Assembly (NCBI GenBank): GCA_033551855.1
Contig: JAWSUI010000025.1
Coordinates: 1-53,160 of the forward strand
Direction of reading: 5' to 3'
Source: Deferrisomatales bacterium
GTDB lineage: Bacteria; Desulfobacterota; Deferrisomatia; Deferrisomatales; JACRMM01
DNA length: 53,160 nucleotides
Of the stretch, positions 14,709 to 23,022 are shown one piece after another. Numbering within the stretch: the first letter of the stretch is position 1; the number at the start of each line of letters is the position of its first letter. A program made the translations under genes and the position numbers. Under the pieces are notes generated by a model. That model did no database searches. It had not been told where the DNA came from and was given only the letters and a program-made list of their open reading frames with translations.

Positions 14709-14737
14709 TTGACACCGCTGTTTCGACCCGCTAGGGT
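14709..14737 (+). promoter_or_regulatory. sigma70 promoter of the tungstate operon
   Basis: TTGACA-N17-TAGGGT; predicted start falls at the riboswitch 5' end (~14744). Confidence 0.75.
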
Positions 14738-14743
14738 CACCGC

Positions 14744-14841
14744 ATCTCCGAGCGGAACGGCCTACCGGCTCTCGAGCCCATGGCCGCCCGCCTGTGGGTC
14801 CGGGTGGAAACGCCCTGGCCCCCCGCGCTTGGAAAGGAGAT
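14744..14841 (+). ncRNA. Moco-family riboswitch, P3-less (tungsten cofactor, Wco-type) variant
   Basis: P1 ATCTCC/GGAGAT, CCGAG junction, P2 with CCTA/ATGG internal motif, P4 closed by a GAAA tetraloop (GGGTGGAAACGCCC), terminal TTGGAAAGGAG; upstream of tup genes. Confidence 0.88.
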
Positions 14842-14866
14842 CCGGAAGGTGCCGTGTGCTCGCCAC

Positions 14867-14897
14867 AGGCCCTCCCCCGCGCGGGGAGGGCCTTTTT
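14867..14897 (+). terminator. Intrinsic terminator in the riboswitch leader (expression platform)
   Basis: AGGCCCTCCCC-cgcgc-GGGGAGGGCCT followed by a T run, between the aptamer and the first ATG. Confidence 0.75.
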
Positions 14898-14996
14898 GCG
14901 CCCTCCCCCCCCGCCTCCTTTCCCGCGTTGCGCCGTGGTTCCGCCCCGTCGGGGCATGGCCGCGGGGCTGTGCCCCGCCTAGGAAAGGAGGAGAGG

Positions 14997-16202
14997 ATGA
15001 GAAAGGCTGTCGTTCTTGGGATGGCGGTGGCGGCGGTCGCACTGCTGGCCGCGGCTCGGCCCGCGCATGCCGCGGTGGACCTGCTCCAGCGGCTGGTGGA
15101 GAAGGACATCATCAACGAAGAGGAGCGAAAGGAGCTCGCCAAGGAGCAGGACGTGGTCTCCGCCCACCGGGGGCGGAGCTTCTCCTGGGCGACCCCGGAC
15201 GGCGCGTTCCGGGCCGAGCTCTACGGGTACGGCCAGGTGCGCTACACCTTCGACGACCGGGACCAGGGCGACAACCGAAGCAACTTCTCGGTCCAGCGGA
15301 TGCGGCTCGGCCTGCGGGGCAACGCCTTCATCAAGGACCTCAAGTACCAGCTCCTCCTGAATGTGTACTCCGGCGACGAAAACCGCGTCTCCCTGTTCGA
15401 CTGGTTCGCCGACTACACCCCCCTCCCGGAGATCGGCCTCAAGGCCGGTCACTACAAGGTCCCCTACGCCGTCCAGTGGAACATCTCGGCGGCGAACCTC
15501 CAGTTCGTGGAGCGCACCACGGTGGACGCGAACTTCCGCTTCGACCGGGACACGGGCGTCACGGTCCACGGCACGTTCTTCTCGATGCTCTCCTACGACG
15601 TGGGCGTCTACAACGGCGAGGGCACGAACAAGAACAACCCCGATGACGGGCACCTCTACGTGGCCCGGCTCACGCTCGAGCCCCTGGGCCGGTACGCCCT
15701 GGCCGAGTCGGACATCGCCCGCTCCAAGAGCCCGATCGTTCTCCTGTCTGCTGCCTTTGCCCAGAACAACGACGTGGCTTCCCACACCCGAGGCAACCTG
15801 AACGGGCGGCTCACGGCGCTGGGGCCGAGCGACGTGACGAGTTGGAACGGCTTCGCGGGCCTCAAGTGGATGGGCGCGTCGGCCCAGGCCGAGTACCACC
15901 GCCGGAAGATCGACCCCGAGGACTCGACGTTGGACGACGAGACGGCGGTGGGGTTCTACGCCCAGGGAGGCTACCTGGTCTGGAAGAACAAGCTGGAGGT
16001 GGCCGGGCGCTACGAGTACTTCGACCCCAACGACGATCTGGCCGACAACCTGCGCCAGGAGTACGGCGGTGCCGTGAGCTGGTTCTTCGCCGGCCACCGC
16101 AACAAGCTCCAGGCCGACTTCTTCCGCATCAACACCCAGAGCCGGACCGCGGACTCCGCCAACGACAACCGCCTGCGGGTGCAGTACCAGTTGGCGTTCT
16201 AA
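14997..16202 (+). CDS. Anion-selective outer-membrane porin (OprO/OprP-like)
   Basis: AAGGAGG RBS, signal peptide, FSVQRMRLGLRG, NLQFVER, beta-strand pattern, C-terminal Phe (QYQLAF). Confidence 0.82.
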   Translation: MRKAVVLGMAVAAVALLAAARPAHAAVDLLQRLVEKDIINEEERKELAKEQDVVSAHRGRSFSWATPDGAFRAELYGYGQVRYTFDDRDQGDNRSNFSVQRMRLGLRGNAFIKDLKYQLLLNVYSGDENRVSLFDWFADYTPLPEIGLKAGHYKVPYAVQWNISAANLQFVERTTVDANFRFDRDTGVTVHGTFFSMLSYDVGVYNGEGTNKNNPDDGHLYVARLTLEPLGRYALAESDIARSKSPIVLLSAAFAQNNDVASHTRGNLNGRLTALGPSDVTSWNGFAGLKWMGASAQAEYHRRKIDPEDSTLDDETAVGFYAQGGYLVWKNKLEVAGRYEYFDPNDDLADNLRQEYGGAVSWFFAGHRNKLQADFFRINTQSRTADSANDNRLRVQYQLAF

Positions 16203-16215
16203 GGGAGGACCACAC

Positions 16216-17034
16216 ATGCGACGCAGTTTCTCCACACTGATCCTGACTGCACTGGTGACCCTCGCGCTGGCACTCCCGGGCCTCGCCCAGGAGCGCCTGC
16301 GCCTGAGTACCACCACCAGCACCGAGAACTCGGGACTCCTCAAGGTGCTCCTGCCGCCCTTCGAGGCGGCGAACAACGTCAAGGTCGACGTGATCGCCGT
16401 GGGCACGGGCAAGGCCCTCAAGCTCGGTGAGAACGGCGACGTGGACGTGGTCTTCACCCACGACCCGGGCCTGGAGGACCAGTTCATGGCCGCCGGGTTC
16501 GGGGCCAACCGGGAGAAGGTGATGCACAACGACTTCGTGGTCGTCGGGCCGGCGGCGGACCCGGCCGGGCTCAAGGCCGTCAAGACCGCCGCCGAAGCCT
16601 TCCAGCGCCTCGCCGAGGGCAAGGCGTCCTTCATCTCCCGGGGAGACGAGTCGGGCACCCACCAGAAGGAGAAGGCCCTCTGGAAGGCGGCCGGCATCGA
16701 GCCCAAGGGGGCGTGGTACGTCCCGGCCGGGCAGGGGATGGGCGAGGTCCTGAACATGGCCGACGAGAAGCGCGGCTACGCCCTCACCGACCGCGGCACC
16801 TACATCGCCTACCAGAGCAAGATCGAGCTCCCCATCCTCTTCGAGGGCGACCCGGTCCTCTTCAACCCCTACAGCATCATGGCGGTGAACCCCGCCAAAC
16901 ACCCCCACGCCAAGTACGACCTGGCGAAAAAGCTCGTGGAATTCGTCGTGAGCCGCGAGGGCCAGAAGCTGATCGCCGGCTACGCCCTGCACGGCCAGCA
17001 GCTCTTCTTCCCGGACGCGATACCCAACCCGTAG
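16216..17034 (+). CDS. tupA: Tungstate ABC transporter substrate-binding protein
   Basis: Signal peptide then LSTTTSTENSGLL (TupA TTTS signature), VGTGKAL, FISRGDESGTH, TDRGTY. Confidence 0.93.
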   Translation: MRRSFSTLILTALVTLALALPGLAQERLRLSTTTSTENSGLLKVLLPPFEAANNVKVDVIAVGTGKALKLGENGDVDVVFTHDPGLEDQFMAAGFGANREKVMHNDFVVVGPAADPAGLKAVKTAAEAFQRLAEGKASFISRGDESGTHQKEKALWKAAGIEPKGAWYVPAGQGMGEVLNMADEKRGYALTDRGTYIAYQSKIELPILFEGDPVLFNPYSIMAVNPAKHPHAKYDLAKKLVEFVVSREGQKLIAGYALHGQQLFFPDAIPNP

Positions 17035-17116
17035 GTCGGGTTAGCCCGCAAGGCGTAACCCGACGCGGTGCCTCACCCGAGGGCCCGTCGGGTTACGCTT
17101 GGCTAACCCGACCTAC
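17031..17116. repeat. GTAG-family REP doublet (REPIN-like palindrome)
   Basis: GTAGGTCGGGTTAGC..GCGTAACCCGAC and an inverted copy ending GCTAACCCGACCTAC; supplies the tupA TAG stop. Confidence 0.8.
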
Positions 17117-17240
17117 GACTACTGGTTCGTTGGGATCGGCAGTCGGGTTGGCCCGGCCGCTTCGAGTCTGCACCGGGTTTCCACTCGTCCCTGAGGTCCC
17201 ATACGTCCCATCGGCCCACAACCGACAACGAGAGCAGCCC

Positions 17241-17933
17241 TTGAACTACTTCCTCACTTCCTTCGCCGCCGCCTGGAAGCTCCTGACGACCTTCGACCCC
17301 GAGGTCTACTTCGTGGTCTGGACGTCGCTCAAGATCGCGTCGGTGTCGGCGCTCCTGGCGGCGGTGGCCGGGATACCCCTGGGGCTCGGCCTGGCGCTGG
17401 CTCGGTTTCGGGGCCGTGGCTTCTTGCTCCTGCTCCTGAATACCGCCATGGCCCTGCCCACGGTGGTGATCGGGCTCTTCGTCTACGCCCTCATCAGCCG
17501 GCGGGGGCCCCTGGGGGAGCTCGGGCTCCTCTTCACGCCCACAGGGGTGATCATCGGCCAGCTCCTTCTGGCCCTGCCGGTGGCCGTCCACTACGCGCAC
17601 TCCGCGATCCAGGCCCTGGACCCGCGCCTCTTTCTCACCATCCGCACCCTGGGCGCCCGGGGCAGCGCGGCGGCGTGGAAGATCCTCACTGAGGCCCGTT
17701 TCGGTGTCATGGCCGCCGTGGTGGCCTCCTTCGGCCGCACCATCGCCGAGGTGGGGGTGGCCATGATGCTGGGCGGCAACATCGAAGGCTTCACCCGCAC
17801 CATGACCACGGCCATCGCCCTGGAGACGAGCAAGGGCGAGTTCGAGTTGGCCCTCGCCCTTGGGCTCGTCCTCATGGCAGTGGCCTTCACCGTGAACCTG
17901 GGGCTCTACGTTCTCCAGAGGGGGTCCCGATGA
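17241..17933 (+). CDS. tupB: Tungstate ABC transporter permease
   Basis: LPTVVIGLFVY..SRRGPLG.LGLLFTP, FGRTIAEVGVAMMLGGNI, TTAIALETSKG; TTG start. Confidence 0.92.
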   Translation: MNYFLTSFAAAWKLLTTFDPEVYFVVWTSLKIASVSALLAAVAGIPLGLGLALARFRGRGFLLLLLNTAMALPTVVIGLFVYALISRRGPLGELGLLFTPTGVIIGQLLLALPVAVHYAHSAIQALDPRLFLTIRTLGARGSAAAWKILTEARFGVMAAVVASFGRTIAEVGVAMMLGGNIEGFTRTMTTAIALETSKGEFELALALGLVLMAVAFTVNLGLYVLQRGSR

Positions 17934-18931
17934 ACGCGGCGTATCACTTGGAAAACCTGGGGTTCGCCTACGGGGAGAGGGAAGTCCTGGACGTTTCCCG
18001 CCTGGAGATTCCGGCCGGCAAGGTCACTGCCCTGGTGGGCCCCAACGGGTCGGGGAAGTCCACCCTGCTGCACGTGCTCTCGTTCCTGGCCGAGCCGCGC
18101 CGAGGGAGCCTGCGATTCTACGGCGAGGAGGCCACGGCCGCTCGGGTTCCCGCCCTGCGCCTCCGGGTGGGGCTGCTGCTCCAGAACCCCTACCTCTTCC
18201 ACGCGTCCGTGGCGGGAAACGTGGACTGGGGGCTCAAGGTCCGGGGCATGGAGCGCCTCGAACGGCAGAGGAGGATCGGCGAGGCCCTGGGGCTCCTGGG
18301 GCTCGCCGGCTACGAGGACCGCTTCGCCCACGCCCTGTCGGGAGGGGAGTCGCAGCGCCTGGCCCTGGCTCGCCTGCTCGCCCTGGAGCCCGACGTGATC
18401 CTCTTGGACGAACCCACGAACCATCTGGACGCCGAGACCCGGGTCCGGGTGGAGCACGCCCTCCAGGACTGGGTCGGCCGCCGGGGTACCACGGTGGTGC
18501 TCGCGACCCACGACGTGGCCCAGGCCTACCGGCTCGGCGCGGCGGTCTGGCAGATGGAGGACGGAAGGATCCGGGAAGGGGAGCCCGACAACGTGTTCCG
18601 GGGCAGGCCCGTGACGGGGGAGCCCGGGGTCTTCGAGACGGCCCGCCTGCGCCTGCGGGTGCACCCCCCGCCGGAGGGGGCCGTTTGCCTGCGCATCGGG
18701 CCCCAGGAGGTCCTCCTCTCCCGGGAGCCGCCGTCCACCTCGGCCCTCAACTGCCTCCGGGGCACGGTGGTGCGGGCGGAGCTCGCGGGCCCCGGGGAGA
18801 TTCGTGCCACCATCGACTGCGGCGAGCCCCTGGTGGCCGTCGTCACCCAGGAGTCCTGGAACCGCCTCGGGCTCACCGTGGGCCAGGAGGCGGTGGCCTC
18901 CTTCAAGGCGACGGCCGTGCGCCCGTGCTGA
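17930..18931 (+). CDS. tupC: Tungstate ABC transporter ATPase with C-terminal TOBE domain
   Basis: GPNGSGKST, LSGGE, ILLDEP; TOBE-like TSALN...VTQESWNRLGL...FKATAV; ATGA overlap. Confidence 0.9.
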   Translation: MNAAYHLENLGFAYGEREVLDVSRLEIPAGKVTALVGPNGSGKSTLLHVLSFLAEPRRGSLRFYGEEATAARVPALRLRVGLLLQNPYLFHASVAGNVDWGLKVRGMERLERQRRIGEALGLLGLAGYEDRFAHALSGGESQRLALARLLALEPDVILLDEPTNHLDAETRVRVEHALQDWVGRRGTTVVLATHDVAQAYRLGAAVWQMEDGRIREGEPDNVFRGRPVTGEPGVFETARLRLRVHPPPEGAVCLRIGPQEVLLSREPPSTSALNCLRGTVVRAELAGPGEIRATIDCGEPLVAVVTQESWNRLGLTVGQEAVASFKATAVRPC

Positions 18932-18968
18932 ATTGCTCACACATCGTCTTCAGGAAAAGGAGCCGACC

Positions 18969-19829
18969 ATGACCCGACGACTCGCAACCCTGGCCGCTCT
19001 GGCCTTCCTTTTCGGTGCGACCGCTCCGAGCGACGCCTATGACCGCTGCGCAGACATCTACGGTGCGGCGAGCGGCCAGCGCCTCTCCCTTGCCACCGGC
19101 AGCCCGGGAGAACTGGGGCTCGTGAAGGCCTTGGTGGAGGCTTACAACAAGGTGGAGCCCGTCTCCGTGTGCTGGAAAAAGGCCGGCTCGGGAGCCTCCC
19201 TGAAGCTGCTCGAGGCCAAGGCGGTGGACCTGATCATGGTCCACGCGCCCGCTGCGGAGAAGAAGGCGGTCGCGGACGGGTGGGCTGCCAACCGCACCCT
19301 GATCGGGTCCAACGAATTCTACCTCGTGGGGCCCCCGGAGGATTCGGCGAAGATCGCCGAGGCGAAGGACGCGGCGGATGCCTACCGGCGCATTGCGCAG
19401 GCCCAGGCGAAATTCTTCACCCGGGGGGACAACTCCGGCACCCACATGAAGGAGCTCGCGATCTGGGGTAAGGCGGGGGTGAAGCCCGAGGGGGCCTGGT
19501 ATGTGACCTCCGCGGACTTCATGGCGGCCACGCTCAAGCGGGCGAGCGACGAGGGGGCCTACTTCATGACCGACAGCAGCACCTGGATCGCCGAGGGAAA
19601 GAACGCGCCCAACCTCCGGATCCTCTTCCGGGGCGACAAGTTCCTCGTGAACACCTACCACGCGCTGAGCGTCCCTGAGGGCGCGACAGGCGGTGCGGCG
19701 GCGGCTGCACGGTTCGTGCGGTTCCTAGCGTCGGAGGCGGGGCAGGGGGTCATCCGGGACTTCGGGAAGGACGTGCACGGCCGGGGGATCTACGACGACG
19801 CCGCCTACGCGAGCCAGTACGACGATTGA
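18969..19829 (+). CDS. Second TupA-like (PBP2) oxyanion-binding protein
   Basis: Signal peptide; shares NEFYLVGP, TRGDNSGTHMKE and WY motifs with TupA but has ATGSPGELG in place of TTTS. Confidence 0.82.
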   Translation: MTRRLATLAALAFLFGATAPSDAYDRCADIYGAASGQRLSLATGSPGELGLVKALVEAYNKVEPVSVCWKKAGSGASLKLLEAKAVDLIMVHAPAAEKKAVADGWAANRTLIGSNEFYLVGPPEDSAKIAEAKDAADAYRRIAQAQAKFFTRGDNSGTHMKELAIWGKAGVKPEGAWYVTSADFMAATLKRASDEGAYFMTDSSTWIAEGKNAPNLRILFRGDKFLVNTYHALSVPEGATGGAAAAARFVRFLASEAGQGVIRDFGKDVHGRGIYDDAAYASQYDD

Positions 19830-19837
19830 GGACGGCC

Positions 19838-20125
19838 ATGCACGTCTCCCTTCTTCTCTTTCACTGCCAGGCCTGCGGCGTCTGGGAGCGGGCCGCCACC
19901 GAGGACGCATTGGTCCGGCTGCAGCGAGAGGGCCTGTGCCAGGGGTGCCGGGCGGCCCGTACCCTGGAGCGGCGGCCGGCGCTCCTGCCCCTGTTCGTGG
20001 GGTTCTGGCGAAAGAGCGGGTTTCCCGCCTCCTCGGCCTGGCTTGCGGCAGTCCTGCCCCCAACCGCCCCCGCCGCGGCCCCGGACCGGCCTGCCGCCGA
20101 GCCGGCCCCGGTGCCGTCCCACTGA
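19838..20125 (+). CDS. Small C4 zinc-finger protein
   Basis: CQAC-x20-CQGC; GAGGA RBS; tight operon spacing. Confidence 0.55.
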   Translation: MHVSLLLFHCQACGVWERAATEDALVRLQREGLCQGCRAARTLERRPALLPLFVGFWRKSGFPASSAWLAAVLPPTAPAAAPDRPAAEPAPVPSH

Positions 20126-20147
20126 TCCCGGCTCGGAGGTCTTGCCC

Positions 20148-20888
20148 GTGCGCATCTACGTGGGGTTCGACGACACCGACACCAAGGACGCCGATCGGGG
20201 AACAGGCAAGCTCGCCCGGTGGTTCGAGGGTGAGCTCCCTCCGGCGTGCGCCGTCTGGGGTGTGGTGCGCCAGCAACTCCTTCTGGACTCTCGCATCCCC
20301 TACACGTCCCACAACAGCGCGGCATGCGTGGTGGTGGAGGCCCCGGGCCCGGACGCCGCAGAAGGTTTGATCGCCCGCGCTCGCGACCACTTGGCGCGGC
20401 ACTTCCTGGAGGGAAGCGATCCCGGCCTGTGCGTGGCGGCGGAAGACAATCCGGCGTTGGAAAGGCTGATCGCTTTCGGACGGTTGGCGGCGATCGAGGT
20501 CGTGACCCCGGATGAAGCATGCTCGGCCGCTGGCGGCTGCCACCTGAGTGCCCATGGCGGCACGGGAGACGGCATCATCGGTGCCGCCGCAGCCGTCGGC
20601 CTGACGGCCGACGGCTGGAATGGCAGGTTCATCGAGTACCGGGGGTTGCGCGACCTGCCGCCGCGCGTCTCGATTGCCGGGCTCGCGGGCCGTGGCATAT
20701 TAGCGGTTTCCATGGACCGCGACGCGCCGGTGCCCCGCCCCGAGGATTGGGTGGAGACCAGGGGATGGCTGCGGCCGCGGTTGTGGGGCGGCCGTCCGAT
20801 CCTGCCCGTCCTCGGCGCCGGGGACGGCGTGTGGTGGTCCGTTGGGGAGAAGCGGCGGAAGGCGGATCCGGACAGCATCCAGGTGTGA
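20148..20888 (+). CDS. Stand-alone TiaS N-terminal-like (DDTD motif) protein
   Basis: IYVGFDDTD, GTG, RQQL...IPYTSHNS, SDPGLCV, GDGIIGA; GGAGG RBS before GTG. Confidence 0.7.
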   Translation: MRIYVGFDDTDTKDADRGTGKLARWFEGELPPACAVWGVVRQQLLLDSRIPYTSHNSAACVVVEAPGPDAAEGLIARARDHLARHFLEGSDPGLCVAAEDNPALERLIAFGRLAAIEVVTPDEACSAAGGCHLSAHGGTGDGIIGAAAAVGLTADGWNGRFIEYRGLRDLPPRVSIAGLAGRGILAVSMDRDAPVPRPEDWVETRGWLRPRLWGGRPILPVLGAGDGVWWSVGEKRRKADPDSIQV

Positions 20889-20900
20889 AGGAGGAAGGCC

Positions 20901-21128
20901 ATGGCGGGACAGATCTTCTACCGGGAGCGCACCAAGGTCGGCGAGGGGGAGAAGAAGCCGCGGTTCATGCTTGTGGCGGTGGCCGGCGTGGATCTGAAGG
21001 TCTTCGCCAAGCACCTGCGCAAGAGCGAGCTCGAGGACATCGCTCAGACGGTGAAGGCCGAGCTCGTCCTTCTGCCCCGGCGGAAGGGCTCCGCGGAGGA
21101 GGAGGAAGAGGTCGAGGTCCCCGGGTAG
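20901..21128 (+). CDS. 75-aa hypothetical protein
   Basis: AAGGAGG RBS, strongly host-like codon usage, acidic tail. Confidence 0.8.
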   Translation: MAGQIFYRERTKVGEGEKKPRFMLVAVAGVDLKVFAKHLRKSELEDIAQTVKAELVLLPRRKGSAEEEEEVEVPG

Positions 21129-21160
21129 ACCACACCGGAGGGCACCGCGGCCCGCTGTTC

Positions 21161-21188
21161 GTAGGGACGACGCATGCGTCGCCCCTAC
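21161..21188. repeat. GTAG-type REP palindrome
   Basis: GTAGGGACGACGCATGCGTCGCCCCTAC, a near-perfect 28-bp palindrome. Confidence 0.75.
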
Positions 21189-21230
21189 GGTCAGGGGGGC
21201 TACCACCGATTTCACGAGGGAGGTCCGCCC

Positions 21231-22061
21231 ATGCCCCTGGTTCGAGACCGAGACGGACGCCGCCTGCACGTGAAGAGCCGGCTCATGGGCGAGAGCCTGG
21301 TGAGCCGCCGCTTCCTCGAGGGGCTCGAAGCTCCGGAGCGGGTGCGTCTCTTTCCCGACGTCGACGTGGTCAAGATCGGCGGCCAGTCCATCTGCGACCG
21401 GGGCCACCACGCCCTGCCCGGCGTCATCCGGGAAGTGGTCGGCGTCAAGGACCGGCACAAGCTCCTCCTCACCACCGGCGGCGGCACCCGCAGCCGCCAC
21501 ATCTACGCCATCGGGCTCGAGCTCGGCATGCCCACGGGCATCATCTCCAAGTTCGGGAGCTCCGTGTCCGAGCAGAACGCGCTCCTCGTGGCCATGCTCC
21601 TCTCCCCCTGGGGCGGGGTGAAGATCGGCCACGACGACGTGGTGAAGCTCCCCACCTACTTCGTCCAAGGCTGCATCCCGGTGATGCACGCCATGCCTCC
21701 CTACGACTACTTCTCTCCCCTGCCCGAGGTGGGGCGCCTGCCCATGTACCGCACCGACGTGGGAACGCTGCTCCTGGCCGACCTCATCGGCGCCCGAAGC
21801 TGCATCTTCGTCAAGGACGAGCGGGGCCTCTACACCGACGACCCCAAGAAGAACCCGGGCGCGGCGTTCATCCCTGAGATCAGCGCGGGTGAGCTCCTGG
21901 CCGGCGGCCAGGACGACCTCATTGTCGAGCGCCCCTGCCTCGAGCTCCTCCAGCGCAGCGAGGTCCTCGACCGCATCCAGGTAGTCAACGGTCTGGAAGA
22001 GGGAATGCTCACCCGGGCTCTAGCGGGAGAGCCGGTAGGTACGGTAATCCGCAGGGGGTAG
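21231..22061 (+). CDS. Molybdenum storage protein (MosA/MosB) homologue, amino-acid-kinase fold
   Basis: VVKIGGQSICDRG, TGGGTRSRH, AMPPY, RTDVG, FVKDERGLYT, QVVNGL...LTRALAGEPVGT; recalled as closely paralleling Azotobacter MoSto subunits. Confidence 0.85.
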   Translation: MPLVRDRDGRRLHVKSRLMGESLVSRRFLEGLEAPERVRLFPDVDVVKIGGQSICDRGHHALPGVIREVVGVKDRHKLLLTTGGGTRSRHIYAIGLELGMPTGIISKFGSSVSEQNALLVAMLLSPWGGVKIGHDDVVKLPTYFVQGCIPVMHAMPPYDYFSPLPEVGRLPMYRTDVGTLLLADLIGARSCIFVKDERGLYTDDPKKNPGAAFIPEISAGELLAGGQDDLIVERPCLELLQRSEVLDRIQVVNGLEEGMLTRALAGEPVGTVIRRG

Positions 22062-22233
22062 CAGCGGCGGGGGGCCGAAAGACCGTCACGAGTGCCCTTT
22101 CGGTTGGACCAGCGCCAGGGCGTGCGATACGAGGGATTGTGAGCCGGGGGCCGGCGAAAAGTTCGAAAGGGCTCGTCCACCCCGCGGCGGAGCCAACACA
22201 GGTCTTGCAACCGTGGGTGGGGGTTCTGGAACG

Positions 22234-23022
22234 ATGACCATGGGTGACGAGCCGCGGGAAACCGGCTGTCCCTCTCGGCTCCGCCCCAGCGGAGGGTTTC
22301 GGAAGCTGCGGTCCTTTCAGGCGGCGACTCTGGTCTACGACGCCACGGTCCTCTTCTGCGCCCGCTTCCTCGACAAGCGCTCCCGCACGGTCGACCAGAT
22401 GGTGCAGGCCGCGCGCAGCGGGCGGCAGAACATCGCCGAGGGGAGCCGCGCCTCGGCGGCGTCGAGCCAGACCGAGCTGCGGCTGGTGAGCGTGGCGCGC
22501 GCAAGCCTCGACGAGCTCCTGCTCGACTACGAGGACTTCCTGCGCCAGCGAAAACTGCCGCTCTGGGGCAAGAGCTCCCCGGAGGCGCAGCAGGTGCGGG
22601 AGATCGGGCGGCAACAGGGTTTCGACCGCTCACATCAGACCGATCGGTCCGATTCTGCCGCGCCAGCGAGCCACTTCGGCCCCTACGCCCCCTGGCTCAA
22701 CCACGGCGACCCCGTCGTGGTGGCCAACGCCGTGATCTGCCTCATCCACCAAGCGAACTACCTCCTGGACCGCCAGATCGCCGGCCTCGAGCGCCAATTC
22801 ATTGCCGAGGGCGGCTACAGCGAGAGGTTGGCAGCGGCGAGGATCGCGGAGCGGCGCCGGCAGGGCGGCGCCCCCGGGTCCGATGCCGCTCCCCAGGCCC
22901 CAACGTGCCCCCTCTGCAGCCAGCCCATGGCCCTGCGCACCGCCCGCAAGGGCCCGCGGGCGGGGTCCCAGTTCTGGGGCTGCTCGGCCGACCCCCAGTG
23001 CAAGGGCGCGCAATCGTTGTGA
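22234..23022 (+). CDS. Four-helix-bundle (suffix-domain type) protein with C-terminal topoisomerase-type Zn ribbon
   Basis: GGFRKL, RTVDQMVQAARSGRQNIAEGS, LLLDYEDFL, F.AEGG.SERL, CPLC...FWGCS..P.C. Confidence 0.85.
   Translation: MTMGDEPRETGCPSRLRPSGGFRKLRSFQAATLVYDATVLFCARFLDKRSRTVDQMVQAARSGRQNIAEGSRASAASSQTELRLVSVARASLDELLLDYEDFLRQRKLPLWGKSSPEAQQVREIGRQQGFDRSHQTDRSDSAAPASHFGPYAPWLNHGDPVVVANAVICLIHQANYLLDRQIAGLERQFIAEGGYSERLAAARIAERRRQGGAPGSDAAPQAPTCPLCSQPMALRTARKGPRAGSQFWGCSADPQCKGAQSL

Follow-up and report, generated by a model that had tools for sequence, protein, structure and literature searches.

A one-gene MoSto-like protein and its 75-aa partner encoded behind a riboswitch-led tungstate uptake operon in a Deferrisomatales bacterium

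Genes and features of the locus

Positions 14,709 to 22,061 of contig JAWSUI010000025.1 (assembly GCA_033551855.1; the whole 53,160-nucleotide stretch analysed is referred to as the window) from a Deferrisomatales bacterium carry a riboswitch followed by nine co-directional open reading frames (ORFs) on the + strand at 14997-22061. Their order is porin, tupA, tupB, tupC, tupA-like, a CxxC ORF, TiaS-like, 75-aa and MoSto-like, the last resembling the molybdenum storage protein (MoSto) of nitrogen fixers. The intergenic gaps are 13, 206, -4, 37, 8, 22, 12 and 102 bp, in that order. The nine genes with their family matches, the riboswitch, and the spacing of at most 37 bp except in two gaps agree with the initial annotation, which was made from the sequence alone. 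The stretch consists of two joined modules: a front (riboswitch, porin and tupABC), which is standard for the order and of an already known kind, and a tail of the TiaS-like, 75-aa and MoSto-like genes. We lean, by a little, towards reading the locus as a single-chain, ATP-driven store for tungsten (W) or molybdenum (Mo), with the 75-aa protein as helper, behind a riboswitch-led tungstate importer. All features are listed in Table 1. G, C and L numbers are our handles for genomes, contigs and loci.

Table 1. Features of the locus in window coordinates, and related loci elsewhere. REP, repetitive extragenic palindromic; AF2, AlphaFold2; Moco and Tuco, molybdenum and tungsten cofactor.
Feature	Position	Strand	Basis
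Predicted sigma70-type promoter	14709..14737	+	-35 TTGACA, 17 bp spacer, -10 TAGGGT
Moco/Tuco riboswitch aptamer, P3-lacking tungsten-associated type	14734..14855	+	RF01055, 59.6 bits
Predicted intrinsic terminator, likely expression platform	14868..14897	+	10-bp GC stem + T5; folding
Outer-membrane porin, OprO/P family, 401 aa	14997..16202	+	PF07396 2e-18
TupA tungstate-binding protein, 272 aa, TTTS motif	16216..17034	+	PDB 3lr1 2e-100
Long GTAG...CTAC hairpin, REP-like, without U tract	17030..17117		Folding and genome BLAST
TupB permease, 230 aa, TTG start inferred	17241..17933	+	NF041773 4e-69
TupC ATPase, C-terminal TOBE domain, 333 aa	17930..18931	+	PF00005, PF03459, NF041774 full length
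Second TupA-like binding protein (tupA2), 286 aa, without TTTS	18969..19829	+	PDB 3lr1 2e-41, 3cvg 4e-19
CxxC...CQGC zinc (Zn)-ribbon-like protein, 95 aa, riboswitch regulon	19838..20125	+	Homologues, four invariant Cys
TiaS kinase-domain-like protein (tiaSN), 246 aa, predicted ATP-using enzyme	20148..20888	+	AF2 model, 3amt match
Basic 75-aa protein, unnamed family	20901..21128	+	No Pfam/NCBIfam family; co-occurrence
GTAG-family REP palindrome, without U tract	21161..21188		About 80 genome BLAST matches
Single-chain MoSto-like protein, 276 aa, amino-acid-kinase fold	21231..22061	+	MosB 6e-64, MosA 3e-44
Distant TiaS-like subfamily loci	L221:7408-8151, L225:5322-6065, L224:6091-6831, L227:7087-7821		

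The MoSto-like protein and its partner genes

MoSto structures were by far the best PDB matches of the MoSto-like protein; uridine monophosphate kinases reached only 3e-6 or weaker, against 6e-64 for MosB, and that identity was rejected. Many homologues are labelled 'molybdenum storage protein' by JGI. The gene is present once in a genome scored 100% complete, which has no mosA plus mosB pair, a point absent from the initial annotation. Lys42, Asp108 and Met149 of MosB, β-subunit residues to which Brunle's work of 2019 is said to have assigned roles in ATP-driven pumping, map to K48, E114 and M155; K48 is kept in 82 and M155 in all 83 of the aligned homologues. An α-type N-terminal arm aligns from residue 13 to the annotated Azospirillum MosA, and H13 is kept in one-gene and α-like forms and lost from β-like forms. 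The one-gene form unites the α arm with the β residues, which two-gene genomes divide between paralogues. An unrooted tree of 38 rows placed the 28 one-gene forms on one side of a 98/92 branch, apart from the α-like and β-like proteins; because it is unrooted, we do not claim that either form is ancestral. The nearest row to the window protein is a Synergistaceae protein (78%), which suggests that the gene may have passed between phyla, and its locus, L003, has a riboswitch immediately before the TiaS-like and MoSto-like genes.

Two further loci bear on this family. A divergent one-gene form (51%, Ile at the Met155 position), with a large family of its own, was found at L089:8799-10745 (G245), where it follows a porin gene and converges on tiaSN and a 75-aa gene. 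On the Azospirillum brasilense plasmid NZ_CP033317.1 (L183:5052-5945), the ORF upstream of mosA is annotated as hypothetical and resembles mosB over no more than the C-terminal two thirds, so that record may contain a frameshift.

The 75-aa protein belongs to no family in Pfam or NCBIfam. Its own family comprises 178 cluster representatives, among the best 150 of which we found no fused forms; the longest is 215 aa with an unrelated-looking tail. The core is basic (median pI 9.9), the protein is rich in Arg, Lys and His, and R8, R10, H38 and E43 are invariant. The predicted model is β-β-α-β (pLDDT 73.5) and found no match in fold searches (Foldseek best E 0.45, VIA best Z 3.8). For the tail module, a PDB profile search returned TiaS as its sole match, which is not significant (E 0.82), and an ESM Atlas search gave merely unnamed clusters below 0.9. 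A homologue of the 75-aa protein is annotated in Methanoplanus. A complex prediction with two MoSto-like and two 75-aa chains scored 0.00. Two diverged copies of the 75-aa gene stand in tandem before the MoSto-like gene in L021, L022, L034, L081, L144 and L155.

We surveyed 80 GTDB loci, all of them best matches to the MoSto-like gene. The 75-aa gene was present in 77 (76 by tblastn and one by hidden Markov model), the exceptions being the two-gene locus L082 and the one-gene loci L041 and L078. The TiaS-like gene was found in 53, and the porin and Zn-ribbon genes in none. For the reverse test, 80 metagenome loci were used, 13 of which were too short to count; in all 67 with at least 400 bp downstream, a MoSto-like gene came next after the 75-aa gene. 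Since best-match loci are a biased sample, we also sampled 301 genomes of the phylum. Here 22 genomes had the 75-aa gene, and in each of them it adjoined a lone MoSto-like gene (directly upstream in 21, convergent in one). MoSto-like genes occurred in 28 genomes: the same 22, five with tandem α/β-like pairs and one with a truncated copy. None of the five two-gene genomes had the 75-aa gene, and in G191 the 75-aa and MoSto-like genes have decayed together. The initial annotation had grouped three uncharacterised accessory proteins, which these surveys separate: the 75-aa protein is a near-obligate partner, the TiaS-like protein a frequent one, and the Zn-ribbon protein belongs to the riboswitch regulon of the order. 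Named cultured carriers are Syntrophus buswellii DM-2, Desulfonema magnum, Desulfogranum marinum and Desulfoprunum benzoelyticum.

The AF2 model of the TiaS-like protein (pLDDT 89.6) superposed through residues 1-158 on 3amt with Z 20.0 and a root-mean-square deviation of 2.2 over 147 residues, and DDTD and Thr19 are invariant in 34 of 34. Its match to NF040849 is partial (1e-6, 27 bits against a cut-off of 600, residues 1-167 of 422). A role in tRNA modification was rejected: the tRNA-binding domains are missing and the context is one of metal uptake. Of the 301 genomes, 23 have a TiaS-like gene, which adjoins the module in 14 of 22 and is absent from all five two-gene genomes. Its presence in 19 of the 22 module genomes was considered as proof of W specificity and rejected, as only 14 copies are adjacent and the more distant homologues examined (33-36%; last row of Table 1) adjoin genes for PF01497 metal-chelate ATP-binding cassette (ABC), ECF-like and TonB-receptor proteins. 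These neighbourhoods suggest that the distant subfamily may act more broadly in the uptake of trace metals or cofactors.

All 28 genomes with a MoSto-like gene have genes of the tungsten-type aldehyde:ferredoxin oxidoreductase (AOR) family, against 233 of the full 301, and TupA was present in 19 of 22 module genomes versus 174 of 301; nitrogenase-fold genes occurred in 5 of 27 MoSto-like genomes. Transporter linkage was counted in the 41 loci with 8 kb on each side. TupA was linked in 15 and ModA in five (two had both), and 23 had neither; over all 80 loci, TupA linkage was seen in 21 and ModA adjoined the module in 10. The proposed linkage of MoSto-like and tup genes is thus a recurrent one, seen also in at least eight of the 22 module genomes; it is common, though not the rule. 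Separately, 20 of the 80 GTDB loci have near the module a regulator combining HTH_17 and PBP_like domains (for example L029:1911-2825, L110:1513-2460 and L101:4726-5619), which we take to be TunR-like. No riboswitch was found in the scanned loci that carry it.

The front module and the history of the operon

The aptamer scored well above the RF01055 gathering threshold of 36 bits and is the sole copy in the genome. In the Rfam alignment its P3 columns are gapped or deleted, and six other leaders share the same short junction. P3-lacking Moco-motif RNAs have been tied to tungsten cofactor metabolism (Regulski 2008, PMC2408646), and we therefore assigned the aptamer to the tungsten (Tuco) type; it is predicted from sequence to act as a Tuco-responsive OFF switch. 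A simple consensus scanner called neither a promoter at 14709-14737 nor a terminator at 14868-14897, both of which the initial annotation had listed, but the boxes and the GC hairpin with its T5 run are visible in the sequence. The -35 box (TTGAC), a TA..T -10 box, the aptamer and the hairpin are common to all five family-level leaders that we aligned. Constrained folding of the leader yielded no clean anti-terminator. Of 21 genomes from the order, 20 have the riboswitch and 20 have TupA. Published work on Eubacterium limosum describes Tuco riboswitches before tupABC (PMC11725836). Several genomes of the order carry tandem Moco-motif riboswitches ahead of porin-tupA (G307:C76:4262-4539, G310:C56:32026-32304, G017:C1:2444706-2444983).

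The homologues of TupA, TupB and TupC form one run. NF041772 and NF041773 are the best NCBIfam matches of TupA and TupB and NF041774 spans TupC, all below the curated cut-offs; TupA reached 248 bits against a cut-off of 400, which is likewise unreached in all 301 sampled genomes. TTTS, which we take to be the TupA motif, is present in TupA and absent from TupA2. Homologues of TupA2 at 63-67% lie in the tup loci of G152 and G306. Of the 23 loci mapped across the order, 9 have porin homologues, in most cases immediately 5' of tupA, and the porin presumably serves as the outer-membrane entry for tungstate or other oxyanions. Five of 40 relatives, each belonging to the same order, have homologues of the Zn-ribbon ORF, in which four cysteines are invariant. 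Two stand immediately after a riboswitch of their own (G235:C84:35931-36377, L198; G211:C59:17497-17970, L199), and those of G306, G307 and G310 follow tupA or tupA2. We consider the ORF a real gene because of these homologues, the cysteines and the two copies directly behind a riboswitch. Its 95-aa product seems to be a small, unnamed component of the order's W/Mo regulon.

The genome matched 6 AOR-family proteins, 6 molybdopterin oxidoreductases and 7 xanthine-oxidase-family proteins. It yielded no nitrogenase-fold match and no stand-alone TOBE or Tub protein. A separate ModA-like ABC operon (G000:C46:510-3721, L218) is led by a regulator with a PadR-type helix-turn-helix and a TOBE domain. 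From this inventory, the ModA-like operon and the lack of a stand-alone TOBE protein, the cell likely uses both metals and has no Tub/Mop store. The tungsten orientation of the initial annotation holds for the front half, as indicated by the P3-lacking aptamer, the TupA match to tungstate-binding proteins, the AOR-family genes, the lack of a nitrogenase-fold match and the separate ModA-like operon. For the tail, we weighed a cage that serves as a molybdate sink, or as a general Mo/W buffer sorting metals in two-metal cells, rather than as a tungsten store. Such a buffer would fit a genome with both AOR-family and xanthine-oxidase-family matches, the loci in which ModA adjoins the module, and MoSto itself, which accepts both metals (PMC6448029). 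TupA linkage is, however, twice as frequent as ModA linkage among the 80 loci, the gene here lies behind a riboswitch of the P3-lacking type, and the genome encodes Mo uptake at another locus, which has a separate TOBE regulator; we regard this alternative as quite unlikely.

The history of the operon was followed in relatives. In G152, of the same family, riboswitches-porin-tupABC-tupA2-tiaSN run up to a contig end; in G303, also of this family, riboswitch-porin-tupABC is followed by a MoSto-like remnant 30 bp after tupC. The link between tup genes and tail is therefore older than the window genome, and a recent acquisition of the tail was rejected. In the same-genus genome G301, tupC directly abuts the same downstream gene and the stretch from tupA2 to the MoSto-like gene is absent. 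No intact MoSto-like gene was found in the 20 other genomes of the order searched. The fixed nine-gene pathway originally proposed was not borne out: it is intact at no other locus examined, its porin and Zn-ribbon genes are missing from the MoSto-centred loci, and G301 lacks the distal stretch. A four-helix-bundle protein with a Zn ribbon is encoded after the operon (window 22213-23022) and marks the same junction in G301. In G301 (L200:10056-11039) and G302 (L201), which are of the same genus, TupA and TupB are 93-95% identical to those of the window and TupC is just 55-57% identical, which points to possible recombination at tupC, the place from which the tail is absent. In G301 the porin match is confined to residues 1-187.

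REP elements had been claimed for both long gaps. The claim is firm for the 102-bp gap, whose palindrome has about 80 BLAST matches in the genome, but the long hairpin of the 206-bp gap has only two partial copies elsewhere in it. Folding revealed no U tract in either hairpin. These gaps raise the question of whether the tail just happens to lie behind the tup operon and is transcribed or regulated on its own, so that no single uptake-and-storage unit exists. The two hairpin-containing gaps do break the gene run, the module is variously arranged from locus to locus and often lies ahead of the tup genes or in the opposite orientation, and G301 is cleanly without the tail. Between tupB and the 75-aa gene, however, no gap exceeds 37 bp, neither hairpin has a U tract, a scan gave no internal promoter, and G152 (up to tiaSN) and G303 (the MoSto remnant) indicate that the link predates the window genome. 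A separately run tail is, in our judgement, very unlikely.

Proposed mechanism and comparison with known systems

If the locus does encode a single-chain store behind a tungstate importer, it might work as follows, all steps beyond gene identity being ones that we infer. At low Tuco, transcription would pass the terminator, and the importer would be off when the tungsten cofactor is plentiful. One transcript would run through both hairpin/REP gaps to the MoSto-like gene. The porin and TupABC would bring in tungstate. The MoSto-like protein would form a homohexamer in which every chain gives both an α-type arm, closing the ATP site of its neighbour, and a β-type pump site. This cage would capture tungstate, and probably molybdate too, with the help of the 75-aa protein, which may supply what an α/β pair has itself: asymmetry, gating or oxyanion hand-over. 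The TiaS-like protein would assist metal uptake as an optional, ATP-dependent factor. The system would serve to store W for the six AOR-family enzymes when a pulse of this scarce metal arrives. MoSto of Azotobacter vinelandii binds W in vivo and in vitro (PMC6448029).

Several observations weigh against this reading. The position that corresponds to α His139/140, presumably a cluster ligand, is occupied by Y143 here. Glu129 and His156 of MosA, which bind clusters covalently (PMC4504029), are replaced by G133 and D159 (alignment to Azospirillum MosA, with numbering offset by 6). Having neither two subunits nor these α ligands, the one-gene form is in our view a variant rather than a member of MoSto, and the Azotobacter-style storage first suggested for it is not supported in that form. 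An OFF switch would express the store only under W scarcity; the MoSto of A. vinelandii, by contrast, builds up whatever the Mo level (PMC6448029). The 23 of 41 loci with neither TupA nor ModA and the five with ModA mean that W selectivity is not implied, and the genome also has seven matches to the xanthine-oxidase (Mo) family. Several loci, L164, L100 and L080, have the module ahead of the riboswitch or pointing away from it, and the one-gene loci L041 (on a short contig) and L078 have no 75-aa gene. Fisher p-values for co-occurrence overstate the association because kin are not independent. Close relatives have either no tail or only a remnant of it, and in G114, G141, G191 and G265 it is broken; it is therefore dispensable. 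The missing ligands, the OFF logic and the ModA-linked or unlinked loci leave room for rival readings.

One of these is that the module activates and delivers oxyanions rather than storing them: the proteins with UMP-kinase and TiaS-kinase folds would activate imported tungstate or pass it on for insertion into the cofactor, and the 75-aa protein would act as a carrier. The replaced cluster ligands beside near-invariant ATP-site residues would suit such a role, as would two kinase folds within one module and an OFF-type riboswitch before the module here and before the TiaS-like and MoSto-like genes in L003, an arrangement that fits scavenging. Yet the gate residue Met155 and the cage-closing arm are retained, the module is present in just 22 of 233 AOR-bearing genomes, and no gene of Moco biosynthesis was identified among the recurrent neighbour families, not every one of which is annotated. 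We hold activation and delivery to be unlikely.

The single-chain store with its 75-aa helper can also be drawn more specifically, and the resulting picture is possible but doubtful. The tail would then be a homo-oligomeric cage with six pump sites and a new cluster chemistry built on H134, H153 and D159 (conserved in 72, 70 and 78 of 83 homologues), gated or loaded by the 75-aa protein, fed by a TiaS-derived oxyanion kinase, W-selective, and distributed over Thermodesulfobacteriota, Synergistota, Spirochaetota and at least one methanogen lineage. In more general terms, the tail likely lets anaerobes capture and bank W or Mo in a way not yet described. We found neither the one-gene form nor its partners described in the literature searched, outside which lay most subscription journals and supplementary files. 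Physiological tungsten storage was first shown in 2025, for the small TOBE protein Tub, and the introduction of that paper presents the cage-type store as a trait of some N2 fixers (PMC11980592). The one-gene cage relative with its 75-aa gene is present in about 7% of the sampled phylum genomes (22/301). If the storage role is correct, it would represent a second, possibly high-capacity, route of W storage in a W-dependent anaerobic phylum, of relevance to sulfate reducers and syntrophs, which need scarce W for their AOR enzymes and formate dehydrogenases. It would also raise the mechanistic question of how a cage that depends on α/β asymmetry can function when built from a single chain, and for what the 75-aa protein substitutes.

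The locus can be compared with four known systems. The leader resembles the Tuco riboswitches of Regulski and of E. limosum in its Rfam family, the lack of P3 and its position upstream of tupABC, and its terminator-type platform is as described for two E. limosum operons (PMC11725836); it differs in also preceding genes for a porin, another binding protein and a Zn-ribbon protein, as well as the storage-like module. The TiaS-like protein shares the kinase-domain fold, and DDTD followed by Thr, with archaeal TiaS, the tRNA(Ile2) agmatidine synthetase (PDB 3AMT, 3U02), but with 246 aa it has neither the OB-fold nor the zinc-ribbon tRNA-binding domains of that 420-aa architecture, and it is bacterial and encoded beside metal-uptake genes. 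Like E. limosum Tub (tungbindin), the tail is a proposed W store in an anaerobe with TupABC and tungsten-containing oxidoreductase (WOR) enzymes; the folds are unrelated, Tub being a TOBE protein that holds 8 tungstates per hexamer (PMC11980592). The closest likeness is to A. vinelandii MoSto (MosA/MosB; PDB 2OGX, 4F6T, 6GU5), a cage in which 70-100 Mo or W are laid down as polyoxometalates at the expense of ATP. With it the MoSto-like protein shares the amino-acid-kinase fold, full-length homology to both subunits, equivalents of β Lys42/Asp108/Met149 and the α N-terminal arm. It differs in being encoded by one gene instead of the two for an (α-β)3 heterohexamer, in the replaced equivalents of α Glu129/His140/His156, in its near-obligate 75-aa partner and frequent TiaS-like gene, in its tup and riboswitch context, and in its host, which is a non-diazotroph rich in AOR genes.

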